From: a virus
Reading direction: 5' to 3' (one strand)
Virus record (IMG/VR): IMGVR_UViG_3300007352_000013
Span: 65,436-129,435 of that record
DNA: 64,000 bases
Under the pieces are notes generated by a model. The model had not been told where the DNA came from. It was given only the letters and a program-made list of their open reading frames with translations, and did not search any database. Of this stretch, positions 6,492 through 64,000 are shown in pieces. Each line of letters starts with the position of its first letter. The stretch's first letter is position 1. The position numbers were made by a program, and so were the translations under genes.

Positions 6492-6935
6492 ATGCATAAA
6501 GATTATAAATCACCAACAACTCCCGGTCTTGATATAGATTTCAAAAACTACGTTATAGAACTAGTATGTTTAAACGTAGATAAAAAATTGGGTCCAAAAT
6601 TTTGGAAGAATAATACGTATTGGTCTAATAAATATAAAAGAGAAATTAAAGGGTTTCATAATCTAAAAGAACATTTGATATTTTCTCTAGATAATCCACT
6701 AGTCCAAAAAATATTGATACAGATTATAAAATCAAAAAATATAAAATCATTATCAGCTACAAAGACAATAGAAAAGATAAGATATCATTTGAAAAACCAT
6801 TATACAAATGAAGTTAATGAAAGATCACAGATTGATATAGAAGAAAATATAAAAATAAATATGAATAAAAATTCTAAATTTATAGATGGAAACAAAAAAA
6901 ATAAAATATCATCAATAAGAGATATGGAAAAATAA
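6492..6935 (+). CDS. Hypothetical protein
   Basis: Tightly packed ORF upstream of recA. Confidence 0.6.
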   Translation: MHKDYKSPTTPGLDIDFKNYVIELVCLNVDKKLGPKFWKNNTYWSNKYKREIKGFHNLKEHLIFSLDNPLVQKILIQIIKSKNIKSLSATKTIEKIRYHLKNHYTNEVNERSQIDIEENIKINMNKNSKFIDGNKKNKISSIRDMEK

Positions 6936-39219: not shown

Positions 39220-39573
39220 ATGAATAATAAAAACATACAAAATGGCAATATCAATCTTATAATTGGACCAACTAGAGAAAGTGAAGCTAGACGCCTAAGA
39301 TCGGAGGGGTGTTCTTTAAGTGAAATAAGTAGAGCATTAGATATTCCAGTAACGTCATTAAGAAGAATAACTAGCGATATTAAATTAACAGAAGAACAAA
39401 AAATTAAATTATTGACTAAAAAAAGAAAAAGATCAAGAAAAGTTATAAGATTAAATTATAATGATGGTAATATTATAATAGATGGAAAAATAAATTTAAA
39501 AGTATCTAAAAGAAAAAGATTTCATCACAATCTAGAAGAATTAATTATTAGGTATATATTAGAACAATTATAA
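39220..39573 (+). CDS. HTH DNA-binding protein
   Basis: ARRLRSEGCSLSEISRALDIPVTSLRRI; lone + gene within the tail module. Confidence 0.65.
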   Translation: MNNKNIQNGNINLIIGPTRESEARRLRSEGCSLSEISRALDIPVTSLRRITSDIKLTEEQKIKLLTKKRKRSRKVIRLNYNDGNIIIDGKINLKVSKRKRFHHNLEELIIRYILEQL

Positions 39574-40191
39574 AAATTCTGTTTCAAAATATAAACCAAA
39601 CTGTTTATCACCAAATTCTTCTGGTGTAACACTTATTGCTACGTACCAATCGTGTCTAGTATCTAGTGTCAAACTGCCATTTGGTCTTAAACCACTCGTT
39701 CCCGGAGAACTTATAAGGTTTAAAAATGTTGATCCATGCGTATCTATCCACGTAGAATCGCCCAGCCCAACATCATCCTGAACTTCACTGGGATGTCTTA
39801 TTTCTGCGCAATAACACGTTAGTCCAGAGGGATCATTATTTATATTAGGTGTTGTTCCACTTATAGATCCATCATATATGTATACTTTTGCAGATAATGT
39901 TCTTACAGAAGATGGGTGTTCAAATCGTATATTTAACGAAGCTAGCGTATTCGGCAAATCAGTTAATTTTATACCAGATCCAGTTTGTCCGTGGATTAAA
40001 CCCGAACTTGATATTCTTTTAATATTATTACACTCAAAACCCTCTTCTGTTCCAACAGAATTTGTCACAAATGTTCTTCCATTAAATTGTCCTATTAGTA
40101 CCGGAGAACCAAATCCATCATCTCCATAAAATCCTATTCCAGAACCATCTGGTAGTAATTGATTTTCTCCTAAATATATAGAAACAGACAT
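39568..40191 (-). CDS. Virion/tail-associated protein, paralog B
   Basis: GIGFYG, LNIRF, PSGLTC and DTRHDWY motifs shared with 38467. Confidence 0.65.
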   Translation of the reverse strand: MSVSIYLGENQLLPDGSGIGFYGDDGFGSPVLIGQFNGRTFVTNSVGTEEGFECNNIKRISSSGLIHGQTGSGIKLTDLPNTLASLNIRFEHPSSVRTLSAKVYIYDGSISGTTPNINNDPSGLTCYCAEIRHPSEVQDDVGLGDSTWIDTHGSTFLNLISSPGTSGLRPNGSLTLDTRHDWYVAISVTPEEFGDKQFGLYFETEFL

Positions 40192-40215
40192 AAAACCTCC
40201 TTATTAATTATACAC

Positions 40216-57431: not shown

Positions 57432-58052
57432 CTATCTTTTCCTTTTAATCGGTTTAGTCAAAGATTTTTCTATACTCCAATTTAATTTAGATAATCTTAA
57501 CCATAAAATTTTTGGACTTATATTATACTCTTCTGCCCAAGCTGATAAACATTGTATTCTACCATTGTAACATATTAATCTATTATGTCTAGTATTTCTT
57601 GCTTGTTCAACTCTAGTAGCCCATTTACAATTATTCAATTCATAATTACCGTCATTGTTTATTCTTTCTAGAGTCATTCCGTTTTTAGGGATACCAATAT
57701 CTTTAAGAAAATTTTCAAATTTTAGCCATCGTTCGCAAACTTTGATTCCTCTTCCTCCATAATTTTTATAATCTTTATTGTTCTGATTTGTGCATCTTTG
57801 AATCATAGTATACCAAATATTATTAATATTAGTCTTTGAATGTCCGTGAGTTGTAAAGTTTATCTTGCAATTGTTAATTCTAGTTTCGGTGTTTAGACAT
57901 CCACAGCTTTTAGTATGGCCATTTCTAAGACTATCTTGCCTAACCAAAATGTAATTTCCACAATCGCATTTACATAACCATTTTACTCTATTATTATTTA
58001 TTCGTTCTATGGGCGTTAATCTACTAAATCTTTGTCCTGTTAAGTTTAACAT
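57432..58052 (-). CDS. HNH homing endonuclease
   Basis: LTGQRFSRL, CKCDCG, TKSCGC, YGGRGIKVCERW and TLERINNDGNY motifs; third paralog. Confidence 0.85.
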   Translation of the reverse strand: MLNLTGQRFSRLTPIERINNNRVKWLCKCDCGNYILVRQDSLRNGHTKSCGCLNTETRINNCKINFTTHGHSKTNINNIWYTMIQRCTNQNNKDYKNYGGRGIKVCERWLKFENFLKDIGIPKNGMTLERINNDGNYELNNCKWATRVEQARNTRHNRLICYNGRIQCLSAWAEEYNISPKILWLRLSKLNWSIEKSLTKPIKRKR

Positions 58053-58053
58053 G

Positions 58054-58233
58054 TCAAGTGGCTATTTTCGATATATGTGGCGGTTTTTTCATCGGAGGAA
58101 ATTGTTCATAAATTTCTCTTTTTGATAGTTTTCCTAATTGCCTTAACCATTTATCTTCAGATTCTGGACTCCAAGGATTTGGCGAATTTATTGATTCTAA
58201 TATATTTTTGTCTATTTTAGTTTTCTTTTTCAT
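58054..58233 (-). CDS. Small hypothetical protein (59 aa)
   Basis: MKKKTKIDKNILESINSPNPWSPESEDKW...; ATGA overlap with the upstream gene; not in the track. Confidence 0.45.
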   Translation of the reverse strand: MKKKTKIDKNILESINSPNPWSPESEDKWLRQLGKLSKREIYEQFPPMKKPPHISKIAT

Positions 58234-58535
58234 TTACAATTCTCTCTATAATTTCTCCAAACTTCTTTTCTAAATTCTTTATCAGAAATAAATGATAAAG
58301 CATCTCTTAGCGCCATTTTTCTTCCGGTAGATTTACTAAAATTATCTGGGGGTCTACATACAGACACCCCTATAGATACTTCATTATCATTTCTAATTAT
58401 TTTTGCCGCAGTACACCTTCTACCATATTCGTCATGTATTTTGAATCCTTCAAAAAGCATATCTTCTTCTGATACGGTATCGTAAAAAAATACTATTTCT
58501 ACTTTTTCATTATTGTATTCGAATCTAATTGCCAT
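58230..58535 (-). CDS. Hypothetical phage protein
   Basis: CTAAKI...GVSVCRPPDNFSKSTGRKMAL motif. Confidence 0.6.
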   Translation of the reverse strand: MAIRFEYNNEKVEIVFFYDTVSEEDMLFEGFKIHDEYGRRCTAAKIIRNDNEVSIGVSVCRPPDNFSKSTGRKMALRDALSFISDKEFRKEVWRNYRENCK

Positions 58536-58857
58536 TTCCTTCCTCCATAATTCCTGTAACAAGCCATTTTAAATGTTTAGGATTAATATCTTCAAAACTC
58601 AAATTTAATGATTGACAAACGATATCAATCCATTCACCAGATGTTTTATCATCATACCCCATCTTTTTTAATACAGGAATGACAGGGGTTATTAATGTTT
58701 CATCGGATGAAAAGCCTCTTTCGTTTATTGATATTAACAGACTCGTATCTATACCATTCTCTATAGCCTTTGATAATGTTTTTTTTGCAGCTTCAAAAAA
58801 ATCTTCTGCATCAACAATATTATTAAAGCTTGCGGTGGTGCAATAGAATTTAGGCAT
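58525..58857 (-). CDS. Hypothetical protein
   Basis: Overlapping ORF. Confidence 0.55.
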   Translation of the reverse strand: MPKFYCTTASFNNIVDAEDFFEAAKKTLSKAIENGIDTSLLISINERGFSSDETLITPVIPVLKKMGYDDKTSGEWIDIVCQSLNLSFEDINPKHLKWLVTGIMEEGNGN

Positions 58858-59383
58858 ATGTAAATACCCCCTGTAAGTTGCGATAAAATCCTTTATAATC
58901 TAAACCATAGCCAATTACAAATTCATCCGGTATATTAAACCCGATATAATCTGGTTTTATATCGGTTTTATTTTTATTCAATAAAAGTGCAAATTCTAAA
59001 TTAGCTGGTCCTAAAGCCATTATTGTTTTTTCTATCATATTAATTGTATTACCAGTATCAAGAATATCATCTACCACTATTACATTGGCATTCTTTATAT
59101 TACATGATGATAACTCTTTTAACGGACTACTAATAGACCTAGATTTATACACTCCGTCATAAGTCTTTATTTTGACAGTAAATATTTCTAACTTGGTTTC
59201 AATATTCTTTATTAGATCGAATAGAAATGGGCCAGCCCCATCCATCACACCTATTAATACTAATCTATTCAAATCCGACGTATATTTGTCAGAAATTTCT
59301 TTTCCTATTTCCTTTATCCTGTTATCTATTTCTTCTATAGATATCAATGGTTTTATTCTGTCAGACCACAATTCGTTGAGCAT
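58850..59383 (-). CDS. hpt: Hypoxanthine-guanine phosphoribosyltransferase
   Basis: IDNRIKEIG, LIGVMDGA, VIVVDDILDTGNT PRPP loop and FVIGYGLDY motifs. Confidence 0.9.
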   Translation of the reverse strand: MLNELWSDRIKPLISIEEIDNRIKEIGKEISDKYTSDLNRLVLIGVMDGAGPFLFDLIKNIETKLEIFTVKIKTYDGVYKSRSISSPLKELSSCNIKNANVIVVDDILDTGNTINMIEKTIMALGPANLEFALLLNKNKTDIKPDYIGFNIPDEFVIGYGLDYKGFYRNLQGVFTYA

Positions 59384-59562
59384 GTATGATATTTCCTATC
59401 TAATCTAACCAAACATTGAAATAATTGTTCAAAAGTTTCACCAGTTATATATCCTTGATTCATTTGAAAATGGAAATAAAAAAATAGTTCATTCCAAGCA
59501 GAATCTTGCATGTCCCTTTCTTGATTTTTATATATAACTTTGTCGCAATCAACGCATCTCAT
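59353..59562 (-). CDS. Hypothetical protein
   Basis: AAGGAG SD upstream. Confidence 0.45.
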   Translation of the reverse strand: MRCVDCDKVIYKNQERDMQDSAWNELFFYFHFQMNQGYITGETFEQLFQCLVRLDRKYHTCSTNCGLTE

Positions 59563-59577
59563 ACATCACTCCTTAAA

Positions 59578-59604
59578 TCAGAAATAGCCCACCTTTCGGT
59601 GGGC
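59578..59604 (-). terminator. Intrinsic terminator-like GNRA hairpin
   Basis: GCCCACC-GAAA-GGUGGGC followed by UAUUUCU. Confidence 0.65.
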
Positions 59605-59634
59605 CATCTCTGTGGTTACTTTTGTTTCTTTTAA

Positions 59635-59913
59635 TTATTCGGGTTGCGTTTGTGACGGAACATCAACGCCAAATCCAAAATCAAAAACTCTTGGTTGACG
59701 ATCTTCTAAACGTGCATCGCCACCCAATGTTACAACGCCAAGGGTTACTGAACGATGACCATTTTCTGGATTAACAGAAAAACCACGATATGCATGCGCT
59801 TCTGTTCTCACATCTAGTCTGCCACGACCAACCTTAGCCGTAGTAATTGAAGCACAACCAGCTATACACGAAAGGATTAGACCAACGCCCAAAATACTAA
59901 CGATACGATTCAT
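59635..59913 (-). CDS. Small lipoprotein
   Basis: MNRIVSILGVGLILSCIAGC lipobox; AGGAG SD; start adjusted to ATG 59913. Confidence 0.65.
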   Translation of the reverse strand: MNRIVSILGVGLILSCIAGCASITTAKVGRGRLDVRTEAHAYRGFSVNPENGHRSVTLGVVTLGGDARLEDRQPRVFDFGFGVDVPSQTQPE

Positions 59914-59960
59914 TTTGTTTCTCCTAAAAGTTAAAGTTTCCACCATATTATACCCAATTT

Positions 59961-60254
59961 TTACGATTTTGTTTCTAAATTATTTAAATAATTTGCAATA
60001 ATGTCACAATGACAAGCTTTGGGCTTACAAAAACAACCCAACACTTTACCTTTTAAAGCTAAAATTCTTTCTTTGAAATCCGGATCAGTCTCTAATCTTT
60101 TATAAAAATATTCTCTATAAGGTTCTATAGCAGACCCTCGTATTCCGTTTATTATACGAAATGGGTTCCCGAAATACCCATCTTTACCATGACCGGCACG
60201 ACCGCAATATACATCATACGGTTCTTTCTTAAGGTTTACTACAGTTGTTTTCAT
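59961..60254 (-). CDS. DUF4326-like protein
   Basis: VVNLKKEPYDVYCGR, FGNPF and LGCFCKPKACHCD motifs. Confidence 0.8.
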   Translation of the reverse strand: MKTTVVNLKKEPYDVYCGRAGHGKDGYFGNPFRIINGIRGSAIEPYREYFYKRLETDPDFKERILALKGKVLGCFCKPKACHCDIIANYLNNLETKS

Positions 60255-60357
60255 GTTTACACCCGTTCCGTCGTATATTTACATCTTCTATATAAAACCA
60301 AACCATACAACCAACAAATGCTATTATAAATGGAGAAAAACATAATATAACATCCAT
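60229..60357 (-). CDS. Single-TM peptide (42 aa)
   Basis: MDVILCFSPFIIAFVGCMVWFY...; TAATG coupling; not in the track. Confidence 0.4.
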   Translation of the reverse strand: MDVILCFSPFIIAFVGCMVWFYIEDVNIRRNGCKHENNCSKP

Positions 60358-60563
60358 TACTTCATACCTCTTTTATCGGCGTTTAAAACATTATCTGTAT
60401 AACAATTGTCTTTTTTAACATTCTCTACAATAGGAAATATTTCTATGTCATGCTTAGAAACATAACCATAATCTTCTAAAGATCTAAATTCTGCAATTAT
60501 AGATTCACCATTTTGTAATTTTTCTATTTGTTCTTTTGTTAAATATAAAGTATCATATACCAT
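60357..60563 (-). CDS. Hypothetical protein
   Basis: ATG at 60563 with GGA upstream. Confidence 0.45.
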   Translation of the reverse strand: MVYDTLYLTKEQIEKLQNGESIIAEFRSLEDYGYVSKHDIEIFPIVENVKKDNCYTDNVLNADKRGMK

Positions 60564-60573
60564 AAATCGTTTC

Positions 60574-60939
60574 CTATATCCACAAATCTTTAAAATATTT
60601 ACCAAATAAATTAAAACCTTTTTGAACTCTTTTATAATCTATCTCCTGAATATCTTCATCCCATTGCCTTACTTCGCAGTCAAATGCATAAATCATATGA
60701 TCCAATATATTTTTCCATTTTTGCATAGTTAAACCATGAGGGTGGCAAAAAGTAGTTTCTTTAAAAAGTTTCAATCTTGGTAATATAAATTTAGCCATAG
60801 TATAATCAAGATTAAAAATATCTATACTTTTAAATCCATATTTTCGTCTAAAGTTTAATTCTCTAAATAATTTTTTAAGTTTGCTAAAAAACATAGTAAC
60901 AATACATATTGGACAAAATTGTTCTTCACAATATTTCAT
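60574..60939 (-). CDS. Hypothetical phage protein
   Basis: DIFNLDYT.A..ILPRL..FK...HP...W..IL..M..AF...GF.LFG.YF.DLW; GGAG SD. Confidence 0.65.
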   Translation of the reverse strand: MKYCEEQFCPICIVTMFFSKLKKLFRELNFRRKYGFKSIDIFNLDYTMAKFILPRLKLFKETTFCHPHGLTMQKWKNILDHMIYAFDCEVRQWDEDIQEIDYKRVQKGFNLFGKYFKDLWI

Positions 60940-60956
60940 AAAATCTCCAAAAAAAA

Positions 60957-61023
60957 TAGGGCTAAAGGCGGTTTTAGATTCACGACTAGAAAGGAGGTGA
61001 TTTTTATCTGCTCAGTAGCCCCA
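60957..61023 (-). ncRNA. Candidate anti-Shine-Dalgarno hairpin RNA (16S 3'-end mimic)
   Basis: Contains AUCACCUCCUUUCUA (60987-61001) closed by UGGGGCUA/UAGCCCUA and followed by U8. Confidence 0.5.
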
Positions 61024-61029
61024 TACATA

Positions 61030-61785
61030 TTATACGTTCGGCTCTAATTTTTGTTCTTGATGAGGACAGATTCCGTTATTTTTAGCACGACCGCAGTTAC
61101 AATTATAGCAGGCTACTTGAAACATGTTTTCTGGAAAATTATTATTTATTATCCATCTACATATTTCTTTGTTAATATCTTTTCTATGTTTATAGCCATC
61201 ATTATTTATATGATCAATTGTTAAGAATTTAATTTTTGTTTCACCACAACAAAAGCATTTTCCACCATAATGGTTTATAACTCTTTCTTTTTGTGATCTT
61301 CTTGATTTATAACCATTTTTACTATTGATATCTTTACATACAGAACATAGAGTCCCATCTATATCTTTTTCACTACCACAATGAGTGCATAAATTTAAAA
61401 TTTTTAATTCATCATATTTTTTCTTATCTTTGGACTTCATATATTTTTGACATTCATTACAATGCACAGAATCCGTTTCTTTAGAGCCGCCACACCTTAC
61501 GCAAATGTTTGATTCTTGCCTTTCTGTATATAAAGATTTGTTGTATTTATTAGAATATTGGGCAGCTTTTTTACCACAAAATTCACAACTTTTCATACCG
61601 TCTCTTGCTGGTTTTCCGCAACGTAAACATGAATTATTATTTCTTAATTTTTCTCTTCTTTTTTCGCTTTTAGTTTTAGATTTATCTAAATGATATTGAC
61701 ATAAGCTTCTTCCTTCTACAACTTTAACTCCGCATCTAATACAAAGACCAGCCAATCTTCTTGCTTCTATAGTTTCTTTTTTCAT
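61030..61785 (-). CDS. Zn-finger-repeat protein with C-terminal HNH-like nuclease
   Basis: Four CxxCG...CxxC/H repeats, then CFCCG, LTIDHINNDG and CYNCN. Confidence 0.7.
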   Translation of the reverse strand: MKKETIEARRLAGLCIRCGVKVVEGRSLCQYHLDKSKTKSEKRREKLRNNNSCLRCGKPARDGMKSCEFCGKKAAQYSNKYNKSLYTERQESNICVRCGGSKETDSVHCNECQKYMKSKDKKKYDELKILNLCTHCGSEKDIDGTLCSVCKDINSKNGYKSRRSQKERVINHYGGKCFCCGETKIKFLTIDHINNDGYKHRKDINKEICRWIINNNFPENMFQVACYNCNCGRAKNNGICPHQEQKLEPNV

Positions 61786-61837
61786 AGCATCACCGCTTTA
61801 TTATACTATAGAAGTTTAGTTTTGTTCCAATTAAAAT

Positions 61838-61865
61838 AAAAAAAGCTAAGATTTCTCTTAGCTTT
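61838..61865 (-). terminator. Intrinsic terminator after the tail tube gene
   Basis: AAAGCUAAG-AGAAAU-CUUAGCUUU followed by a U-tract. Confidence 0.7.
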
Positions 61866-61893
61866 CCTTATTTATTATGTTTTACTTTATATT

Positions 61894-62925
61894 TTACAGA
61901 CCTGCGGGGTCTTGATCTTGAGTGACAGTTAAAGAATTAAAGTTTGAATAATTGTAAGAAACTTGAACATTGCCGCCCGTCGCATCTCCACCACCATAAG
62001 TTACACTTGATAACTTATTTCTTGTTCCAAGATTAAATTTTGTACTATCGTTTAGATAAATTACTATTTGTTGATCGGTAAGATTAGTTCCTCCTGGCGG
62101 ATCAGCTAAAGCATCTACTAAATCGCCTTCGCTTGATGTAACGTTTATAGCACAAGTAACTTCAACCGGGAAGGTAACAAACCTATGATATGGCCCACGA
62201 CGACCCAACTCAAATAATTCATCTCTACCCAAATCTGTAGAAATAGTTACCGTTTGAATATGTGCATTGAATACACCATTTACATCAAGATTAAATCCGC
62301 TTGGATCAATACCAGGAATATCTAGCGGCCAAATACTTCCACTAGCTCCAGAACCCATTATAACGTCTTCTCGTCTTTGAACACCACTAGCAGCGAACGG
62401 AGAATCTGTACCATCAAATCCTACTGGTGTAAATCCATTACCACTTGCATACCATACTTTATCATTACCAACTAATGTAATATCTTCGGTGCAGTTTCCA
62501 TCTATATTAAGTGTGTATGTTAAAGACGAAACATACATACCGGACATACCAACCATTTGCAATGGTGTACCGGAAGCGTTATCGAAAGTATCGGGATAAA
62601 TGTTTAATGCTACATAGCATCGTTCATTTGAACGTCCAACAAGAGTTGGTGATACAGCCAAAGGCGTAGCAAGATGATATAGCAAAGGATACCCGTCAAG
62701 AACCTTTTGCGCTGTAAGTTCTATAGCGGGAATACCTTCTATATTCTCGTAAAGTTCCAATTGACCAAGTTCGAATACCTGTTCCAAATTGAATGTAGTA
62801 TTTATACTTACACTCTGAACACCATGAACGGTATTAAAACCAGAAGGAGCGCCTCCAGAAGCCGAAACATCATGCGGTGCTATACCCAAACCTTGAATTG
62901 CGTAAAATATGCGATTATTTGCCAT
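61894..62925 (-). CDS. Major tail tube protein
   Basis: GVQSVSINTTFNLEQVFELGQ and RDELFELGRRGPY two-lobed repeat; own promoter box and terminator; elevated GC. Confidence 0.7.
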   Translation of the reverse strand: MANNRIFYAIQGLGIAPHDVSASGGAPSGFNTVHGVQSVSINTTFNLEQVFELGQLELYENIEGIPAIELTAQKVLDGYPLLYHLATPLAVSPTLVGRSNERCYVALNIYPDTFDNASGTPLQMVGMSGMYVSSLTYTLNIDGNCTEDITLVGNDKVWYASGNGFTPVGFDGTDSPFAASGVQRREDVIMGSGASGSIWPLDIPGIDPSGFNLDVNGVFNAHIQTVTISTDLGRDELFELGRRGPYHRFVTFPVEVTCAINVTSSEGDLVDALADPPGGTNLTDQQIVIYLNDSTKFNLGTRNKLSSVTYGGGDATGGNVQVSYNYSNFNSLTVTQDQDPAGL

Positions 62926-62995
62926 TATTTAACTCCATTAAATTTACCGTAAAATACCTTATCCAATATAATTTATACACAAAATTATACGGTAT

Positions 62996-63928
62996 TTATA
63001 TGCCTCCAAAATCAATTTCTACTTTATATTTTACAATAGCCCTAAAAAGCTTTGTATTTAAGGAATTCAATTTTTTACACGACCCCTCAAGTATTCTTAA
63101 TTTTTTATAAGGATACTGATCCATCAAATCAATCCAATTGGTTGCTCCCAATACAATATCGCCATATTGGTCAAATGGTAATTGAATATTATTAAGATCA
63201 AACATTATAAAAGCAGAACGATTATTATAATCTAACCAATCCATTAAAAGATTTCTATCATAAGAATTATCAGCAAAAATATGTAATGTTATTATTCTTG
63301 TTTTTATTTGACCACCACCAAGCTGTAATCCACGACCATCACCAGAATCAACTGATATAAAAATTGATGGAAGCCATATTTGATGATCTTTTGATGGTGT
63401 ACCCGATGGAACGGTATCTGTTAGAAATTCTTCAACCGAATTCAACATAAGAGTTTGAAATTCTTCAGAATCGGCAAATCCAACATAAACAGATCTAGAT
63501 GTATATTCAGTCCTAATATCATCGTCGGGATTTTGACTTTCTTCAAATATAATTCTTCCATGTCTATAATCTGTATGATGTCTATACTGTCCTACATCAG
63601 AGGATGGGATAAAAGTTCCATTAACATACACGCCGGATACCCTGAATGGAACAATCCCACCACTCATTGGTGTTACGCCAGATTCCCAAACCCATTCTCT
63701 ACCAACACCATTCCATACACAGTTTATAGGATATCTTTCATCTACAACCGGATAAAGTTTGGATTCATTTTCAGCAAAATAACTATCCTGATCATATAAA
63801 TACAAATTATATCCACCATGATGAAGTAATCCCCAATCTATCCATGCTTTTATATTATATAATAATTGATCAGTTAATTCGTAACCGCCATAACCACCAA
63901 CACCAATTCCTTTTAAAGTAAGTGACAT
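62996..63928 (-). CDS. Tail completion/terminator-like structural protein
   Basis: Upstream of the tail tube; LPSIFI, GLQLGGG and LHIFA motifs. Confidence 0.5.
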   Translation of the reverse strand: MSLTLKGIGVGGYGGYELTDQLLYNIKAWIDWGLLHHGGYNLYLYDQDSYFAENESKLYPVVDERYPINCVWNGVGREWVWESGVTPMSGGIVPFRVSGVYVNGTFIPSSDVGQYRHHTDYRHGRIIFEESQNPDDDIRTEYTSRSVYVGFADSEEFQTLMLNSVEEFLTDTVPSGTPSKDHQIWLPSIFISVDSGDGRGLQLGGGQIKTRIITLHIFADNSYDRNLLMDWLDYNNRSAFIMFDLNNIQLPFDQYGDIVLGATNWIDLMDQYPYKKLRILEGSCKKLNSLNTKLFRAIVKYKVEIDFGGI

Positions 63929-63999
63929 TATATTATCCTCTCTATTAATATTTCTGCTGCTCTTTGAGCTACATTTGGTTGTCCTATTGCAAATTCAAT
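63928..63999 (-). CDS. C-terminus of an upstream structural gene (partial)
   Basis: IEFAIGQPNVAQRAAEILIERII*, TAATG-coupled to 63928. Confidence 0.45.
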   Translation of the reverse strand: MEFAIGQPNVAQRAAEILIERII

Positions 64000-64000
64000 G

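Follow-up and report, generated by a model that had tools for sequence, protein, structure and literature searches.

RsaE and RNAIII have unpaired loops of the UCCC type, with which they bind Shine-Dalgarno (SD) sequences and block initiation (PMC2790875), and in the small RNAs with C-rich anti-SD loops an unpaired conserved motif pairs with SD regions and blocks binding of the 30S subunit (PMC2790875; PMC4132741). The c4 RNA of phages P1 and P7, which is about 77 nucleotides (nt) long, has loops that pair with a ribosome-binding site (RBS) (PMC12197685). This report concerns a hairpin element on the minus strand of an uncultured phage genome, in which a copy of the 3' tail of 16S rRNA is predicted to be displayed in the apical loop. 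The element lies in a window of 64,000 nt, which is the last 64 kb of the 129,435-bp IMG/VR virus record IMGVR_UViG_3300007352_000013; the record is estimated to be 77% complete and is labelled G000 in what follows. With a probability of about one half, we read the element as a promoter-to-terminator unit that would give rise to a leader or small RNA of 65-75 nt with a 16S-tail-like loop directed against RBSs. Most of what is known of how phages control host translation concerns proteins. Two other arrangements also bear on the comparison. At lambda pR'-tR' (6S RNA), the promoter fires into an intrinsic terminator and the short RNA is extended only when an antiterminator acts. In the STAB-SD of the Bacillus thuringiensis cry3A leader, an SD:anti-SD interaction takes place outside the normal initiation site.

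The 15-mer that matches the single-stranded 16S tail, AUCACCUCCUUUCUA, occurs exactly once in the 129,435-bp record when both strands are counted, and the chance expectation for both strands is 4e-4 copies under a first-order Markov model. The next-longest match to the 16S-tail template on either strand of the record is 9 nt. The limits of the match coincide exactly with the ends of the single-stranded tail of mature 16S rRNA, and the sequences on either side are not 16S-like. The original prediction, which was made from the letters of the window alone, had read this minus-strand intergenic stretch correctly and had described a perfect copy of the tail. The perfect copy stands for G000; it does not stand as a conserved trait, because only the 3'-terminal 9 nt are kept in relatives. 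These nine bases, UCCUUUCUA, are those with which the common 16S tail of bacteria ends (...GAUCACCUCCUUUCUA). A captured piece of 16S rDNA was considered as a source and is ruled out by the flanks that are not 16S-like and by the absence of any match to small-subunit rRNA in Rfam.

Four lineages carry the element, namely G000, L069 (an IMG/VR record), L251 (a JGI metagenome contig) and L276. Pattern scans together with a covariance model found L069 in IMG/VR and L251 in the JGI metagenomes, and these two were the only real members that the pattern scans of both collections returned. The fourth lineage (L276-L279) was recovered by a search with a homolog of the protein encoded downstream, here called p121, and the L251 type was met again in further samples (L280-L283); each of these two types is represented in 4 samples. 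The syntenic regions of relatives were additionally inspected by eye. When the covariance model, R1, was run on 13 related IMG/VR genomes it gave no additional copies, which is a weak negative, as it also missed the L276 type. The closest relatives of G000 are L251 and L276, with 84-87% identity of the capsid protein. The element is a unit of a small subclade of uncultured phages of about 170 kb. As a separate observation, three more distant capsid relatives (L264, L265 and L266, 44-72% identity) lie in metagenome-assembled genomes labelled Phycisphaerales, Candidatus Heimdallarchaeota (a 4.9-Mb 'chromosome') and Saccharimonadales. Phage DNA that was binned with them or mis-assembled is the probable cause, and the placements are no reliable guide to the host.

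All four lineages share one architecture, in which a terminal stem of 7-9 bp leads into a junction with CUGA as its 5' strand and CUU as its 3' strand; beyond the junction lie an inner stem and an apical loop of 10-20 nt, and a U-tract follows the terminal stem. The CUGA and the CUU are identical in all four. In a three-sequence alignment of G000, L251 and L069 the outer stem is 100% paired, two of its pairs have changed on both sides, and one more has gone from GC to GU. The outer stem of L276, GGCUAAA/UUUAGCC, adds four further compensatory positions when it is aligned by eye with CUGA/CUU as the anchor. The inner stems are of unrelated sequence across the lineages and are still paired, and the U-tracts read U8, U7, U5 and U5-A-UU. 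Three of the four lineages, namely G000, the L251 type and the L276 type, have an identical UCCUUUCUA motif in the apical loop, where it is predicted to be unpaired. Among these three lineages the third-codon identity of the capsid gene is 49-52% and that of the remaining interior of the element is 36-66% (forced global alignments). Nine unchanged bases in three lineages at such divergence would be very unlikely without selection. The element, its conservation, its covariation and its linkage to a promoter and a U-tract are read directly from the sequences. The search for conservation and covariation that the original prediction suggested has therefore turned out well for it: four lineages keep the architecture with compensatory changes in the stem, and three keep UCCUUUCUA.

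The minimum free energy fold of the G000 element pairs 61016-61024 with 60956-60964 as the outer stem, followed by AGAU/AUCU and UCAC/GUGA. The outer stem has 7 bp, or 9 bp with two further A-U pairs that precede the predicted transcription start. The segment CUCCUUUCUA is mostly unpaired, with unpaired probabilities of 0.5-1.0. The pairings and the exposed apical loop that had been predicted are therefore reproduced by the fold, and the predicted U-tract is also in place, as U8 directly follows the stem and is itself followed by GGAG and the ATG of the gene at 60574-60939. The stability of the G000 fold is unremarkable (z of -0.7 to -1.8, and +0.3 for the 49-nt interior alone); the z-scores of the relatives are -5.5 for L251, -2.9 for L069 and -2.1 for L276.

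As a terminator the hairpin has a mixed character. A stem of 7-9 bp with 3-4 G-C pairs stands directly before the U8, and stem and U5-U8 are present in all four lineages. However, a simple terminator has a short loop of 3-8 nt and here the stem encloses 29-49 nt with a junction, an inner stem and a loop of 10-20 nt. A consensus terminator scan did not list the hairpin, though it did list the capsid terminator at 61842-61865. Rfam covariance models run over 58000-64000 with E values up to 10 gave no match on the element. The coordinates of the element and of the features around it are collected in Table 1.

Table 1. Positions of the element, its parts and the adjoining features in the 64,000-nt window.
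Feature	Position	Strand	Basis or remark
-35-like hexamer AGAACA	61052-61057	-	separated from TATAAT by 17 nt; L251 and L276 have its ortholog as their single promoter
Zn-ribbon-rich, HNH-like gene	61030-61785	-	outside the RNA unit; last codons overlap the promoter
-10 box TATAAT, containing the HNH stop TAA (61030-61032)	61029-61034	-	kept as DNA in relatives
Predicted RNA, about 74 nt, from G-run to end of U-tract	60949-61022	-	start and end predicted from sequence
Outer stem, 5' arm, AUGGGGCUA (GGGGCUA if the start is at 61022)	61016-61024	-	fold and pairing in relatives
CUGA junction, 5' side of internal loop	61012-61015	-	same in four lineages
15-mer identical to the single-stranded 3' tail of 16S rRNA, AUCACCUCCUUUCUA	60987-61001	-	sequence match
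Conserved apical-loop 9-mer UCCUUUCUA	60987-60995	-	same in G000, L251 type and L276 type
CUU junction	60965-60967	-	alignment; same in four lineages
Outer stem, 3' arm, UAGCCCUAU	60956-60964	-	fold and alignment
U8 tract, intrinsic-terminator-like tail	60949-60956	-	first U can pair with A61024
Weak SD GGAG	60945-60948	-	upstream of p121
p121 gene, start ATG 60937-60939	60574-60939	-	downstream gene in three of four lineages

The element is tied to a promoter-like motif that is conserved across the clade. About 20 related phage contigs have one layout at this place, namely the capsid stop, a G+C-rich hairpin with a T-run, G/C-N-AACA-N17-TATAAT and, a few bases further on, an SD and the next gene. 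The G/C-N-AACA-N17-TATAAT arrangement past the capsid terminator was recorded in about 12 of the related contigs; the promoter-like motif lies about 60-110 nt past the capsid stop in L003-L018. In G000, where the capsid-like gene is at 61894-62925, the motif occurs twice on the minus strand, at about 61800-61828 and at 61029-61057, and the two copies flank the HNH-like gene. The GTAYAAT at the 3' end of the HNH gene is kept at the DNA level in L069, L107 and L109-L113, though the C-termini of the proteins differ. In all four lineages with the element a G-run begins at the base of the outer stem, 7-8 nt past the -10 box (7 nt in G000); this is where transcription would be expected to start, so the first base of the outer stem is the predicted start. 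The GGAACA...GTATAAT class has few copies genome-wide in G000 and GTATAAT itself is not enriched there (49 found and 64 expected), and the promoter claim therefore rests on conservation across genomes. As a side observation, a weak Sigma70_r2 match (22.9 bits, just below the cut-off) is located at 61558-61695 (plus strand) of the G000 record, about 3.8 kb before the start of the window, in a frame of 167 amino acids that may encode a phage sigma-like factor.

The HNH-like protein has only weak zinc-ribbon matches in Pfam, and its HNH motif was read by eye. Its gene follows the capsid gene in G000, L069, L003, L004, L009, L011, L012 and L015 and is absent in L251, L276 and many others. The gene is thus polymorphic as an insertion, and about 9 of 21 close relatives have it. 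Without the HNH gene, the order in L251 and L276 is capsid, terminator, AGAACA/CGAACA-N17-TATAAT, element, U-tract and p121 homolog. As these two lineages keep the same promoter and element, the element is to be assigned to the promoter and the p121 leader, and the HNH gene is an insertion, the end of which overlaps the promoter that is resident there. The original prediction had considered a product of the HNH 3' untranslated region. This has to be given up, because the HNH-free lineages carry the same element behind the same promoter and the HNH stop is inside the -10 box. An element linked to the HNH gene in a wider sense was rejected too, as L251 and L276 have it without HNH and no such hairpin is present in 23 further HNH relatives and in P0002-P0008.

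On the minus strand, about 90 nt separate the HNH stop from the p121 gene. The p121 protein matches phrog_11543 and viral hypothetical clusters, and its homologs in L251 (110 amino acids) and L276 (109 amino acids) start 10-12 nt past the U-tract. In L069 the element follows the HNH gene and no gene starts for about 140 nt, i.e., the unit stands alone there. The L069 locus (6718-6925) has other peculiarities. The 8-mer GATATGGG is found just before the element and again just after the U-tract, which may reflect a duplication of the start region, and after the second GATATGGG comes a remnant open reading frame (ORF) of 42 amino acids (6797-6925), a Zn-ribbon that resembles the N-terminus of the HNH protein. 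The reverse complement of the apical hairpin of L069 (6740-6765) shares the 10-mer AUCUAAAACC with 60965-60985 on the minus strand of G000, in the 3' half of the interior; an inversion of the loop or an ancestral longer hairpin may account for it.

The linkage of promoter, stem and U-tract supports the short structured RNA with a terminator-like end that had been predicted. The start and end of transcription, the pairing partners and the effect on translation are what we infer from this arrangement, as follows. A sigma-70-like promoter, AGAACA-N17-TATAAT, would start transcription at the G-run. The first 7 nt of the transcript would pair with the sequence just before the U-tract, and the terminal stem would double as an intrinsic terminator. 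Terminated transcripts would be free RNAs of about 65-75 nt, and in transcripts that read through, this structure would form the 5' leader of the p121-family gene. Function would reside in the exposed pyrimidine loop, UCCUUUCUA, which in G000 is extended to the whole 15-nt tail. This loop probably pairs with RBSs, where it would engage the purine-rich UAGAAAGGA(GG)-type SD regions of mRNAs in competition with the 30S subunit, an anti-RBS action in the manner of the small RNAs with C-rich loops. The mechanism presupposes a host 16S rRNA that ends in CCUUUCUA. A more far-reaching proposal, which we put forward only tentatively, is that large phages encode a dedicated RNA that imitates the free tail at the 3' end of the host's 16S rRNA, whose loop would compete for SDs or divert a tail-recognising factor and in this way reprogram the translation of mRNAs during infection. 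If this is true, the G000 family would hold the smallest and most literal such mimic, a 15/15 copy.

The SD usage of the phage agrees with this choice of partners. Matches of at least 5 nt to the SD template are found upstream of 73 of 168 ORFs, compared with 30 of 168 internal controls. AAAGGA is the part of the template that is covered most often, and numerous sites have (U)AGAAAGG(A) at 5-6 nt before the ATG; the conserved loop UCCUUUCUA is therefore complementary to the commonest SD type of the phage. The longest genuine SD among the G000 genes is 9 nt.

Several results weigh against the anti-RBS reading. Only G000 has the full 15-mer with the canonical CCUCC core, and the apical loop of L069, UAGGGGUUUU, is G-rich and has no such motif. 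As there are only four lineages, three of them close, the statistical support for covariation is weak (the observed score is reached by 57 of 500 shuffles). The host 16S tail is deduced from the SD usage of the phage only. A non-specific anti-SD RNA would need a very high abundance for a global effect on translation. The in silico search for targets gave nothing beyond generic SD pairing. The best match to a translation initiation region (TIR) was that of the gene at 39568-40191, which pairs with 31 of 39 nt of the interior; it was rejected as a specific target, as flank-shuffled RNAs that retain the 15-mer do equally well in 49 of 200 cases and the ortholog in L069 shows nothing. The duplex with the TIR that follows the element itself has -8.1 kcal/mol, compared with -7.1 +/- 2.7 kcal/mol for shuffled sequences (159 of 500 as good), and the SD pairing spans only 3-4 nt in each lineage. 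The action in cis on the GGAG of gene 60939, which had been offered as an option, loses its footing with this result, as the pairing is no better than that of shuffled sequence.

A device that acts on transcription only would account for the stem and the U-tract. The element would then be a promoter-proximal terminator or attenuator with a stem that protects the 5' end, serving the p121 operon and comparable to lambda pR'-tR'; the likeness to 16S rRNA would have no translational meaning and the loop would be a contact for a protein or RNA polymerase, or filler. The order of promoter, stem, U-tract and gene is conserved, the terminal stem and the U-tract are the best-conserved parts, and simple hairpins come right after the same promoter in L011, L108, L107 and L111. 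However, a plain terminator or stabiliser needs no interior of 29-49 nt, and such a device would leave unexplained both the identical 9-mer in three otherwise unalignable loops and the 15/15 copy of the tail, for which 4e-4 copies are expected. We regard it as possible, if somewhat doubtful. The G000 match ends exactly where the single-stranded tail does on both sides and has no 16S-like sequence beyond it; this and the conservation of the very 3' terminus could also be taken to mean that the loop is a decoy for a protein instead of an mRNA, in which case it would bind or divert a factor that recognises the free 16S 3' end. Candidates for such a factor are Era, which binds GAUCACCUCC, bS21, S1, the RNases of 3'-end maturation and an rRNA-cleaving toxin such as MazF, which cuts UCCUU. 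This explanation is unlikely: the Era-type AUCACCUCC part is present in G000 only, no partner protein is evident and no bS21 gene was found in the record.

The remaining explanations place the function elsewhere than in a minus-strand RNA loop. On the plus strand the same 15 nt are a maximal SD, and they could be an orphan or decayed RBS or a STAB-SD-like site that binds 30S subunits on an antisense transcript. The same 15-mer is indeed an ordinary RBS in at least 59 of the 81 IMG/VR occurrences examined, with a start codon that heads an ORF 3-5 nt past GTGAT, and about 10 occurrences have no start codon. In G000, however, no ATG, GTG or TTG follows within 20 nt of the SD, as the original prediction had stated, and L251 has no start either. 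All of the neighboring genes are on the minus strand, the promoter and the U-tract are oriented for that strand, and within about 180 nt upstream of the SD no plus-strand promoter was listed by the scan or seen by eye. A genuine SD of 15 nt would also be out of line with the 9-nt maximum of this phage, and three lineages would not have kept a relic identical amid changed surroundings. A plus-strand feature is therefore quite improbable, and the RBS of a decayed plus-strand ORF, which had been named as the alternative that would undo the original prediction, is unlikely on the same grounds: there is no start in G000 or L251, the flanking genes are on the minus strand and the motif outlasts its surroundings. 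A small protein gene is very improbable. The candidate is an ORF of 30 codons at 60936-61028 on the minus strand, which starts one base past the HNH stop and overlaps the start of p121 in an ATGA at its own end, and which could couple the translation of HNH to that of p121. But the corresponding frames have only 6-8 codons in L251 and L069, the compensatory changes in the stem alter the peptide (Leu to Ser) and preserve the pairing, no SD precedes the ATG, and the ATG is upstream of the predicted start of transcription.

Some additional observations were made along the way. The exact 15-nt SD without a start codon is also found in the IMG/VR contigs L129 (8484), L135 (3011), L141 (4283) and L117 (2639); three of the contigs with a start-less 15-mer are related, and the 15-mer there follows a small hairpin. 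It is possible that these are orphan-SD RNA elements. The region 39568-40213 (minus strand) of the window encodes a conserved protein of 207 amino acids that is 64-70% identical in relatives and has a paralog nearby. Its gene (39568-40191) has the strongest SD of the genome, AAGGAGGU, directly behind a GTGTATAAT box, and its orthologs carry TGTGTATAAAT-like boxes that are reminiscent of a late-promoter motif. A RAGATH-5-like match at 63633-63666 (plus strand), in the region of the gene at 62996-63928, has 23.9 bits compared with a gathering score of 50 and an E value of 1.2 and is probably due to chance. A scan of the window for tRNA and tmRNA with ARAGORN found none.

With its small size, sharp limits and single conserved loop of 9 nt, the element could be readily synthesised and assayed. 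If the loop occludes UAGAAAGGA-type RBSs, the phage would tune or shut off classes of mRNAs with an RNA of about 70 nt. If it does not, the element would still be a clean and conserved promoter-proximal terminator and leader, and the locus would show how a homing HNH gene can be inserted by overlapping a resident promoter.

Among the systems that have been described, the element would resemble in its layout the RsaE/RoxS RNAs of Bacillota, the hairpins of RNAIII and LhrC: a short RNA, a terminator hairpin and an unpaired, conserved pyrimidine- or C-rich motif that is complementary to the SD. It differs from these in that it is encoded by a phage, has no sequence or Rfam relation to them and would also double as a 5' leader. 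Moreover, the motif here is UCCUUUCUA, the extreme 3' end of 16S rRNA (and the 15-nt tail in G000), whereas that of the RsaE-type RNAs is UCCC. Like the c4 RNA of P1 and P7, it would be a short phage RNA directly upstream of genes in the same operon (PMC12197685). However, the loops of c4 are specifically complementary to the icd/ant leader, whereas the complementarity of the element to its own TIR is 3-4 nt and no better than shuffled, and the element gave no match to the Rfam C4 model. With lambda pR'-tR' and other promoter-proximal terminators it shares a promoter that leads directly into a terminator ahead of a gene block, but the unit is much shorter, and those systems have no counterpart to the conserved 16S-tail-like loop. 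Neither Q-binding or pause elements nor an antiterminator gene were identified, and no search aimed at Q- or N-like antiterminators was made. The STAB-SD displays the purine strand of the SD and binds the 30S subunit, whereas the element displays the anti-SD pyrimidine strand, is thereby unable to pair with 16S rRNA and would compete with it instead. A phage-encoded copy of the 16S tail that competes for the SD:anti-SD contact is absent from Rfam, and targeted full-text searches of the literature found no description of one. In conclusion, a pyrimidine loop directed against the SD is already known from bacterial small RNAs, and what appears to be new is a phage-encoded unit that reproduces the 16S tail, conserved as UCCUUUCUA, and that is also placed as a terminated leader.
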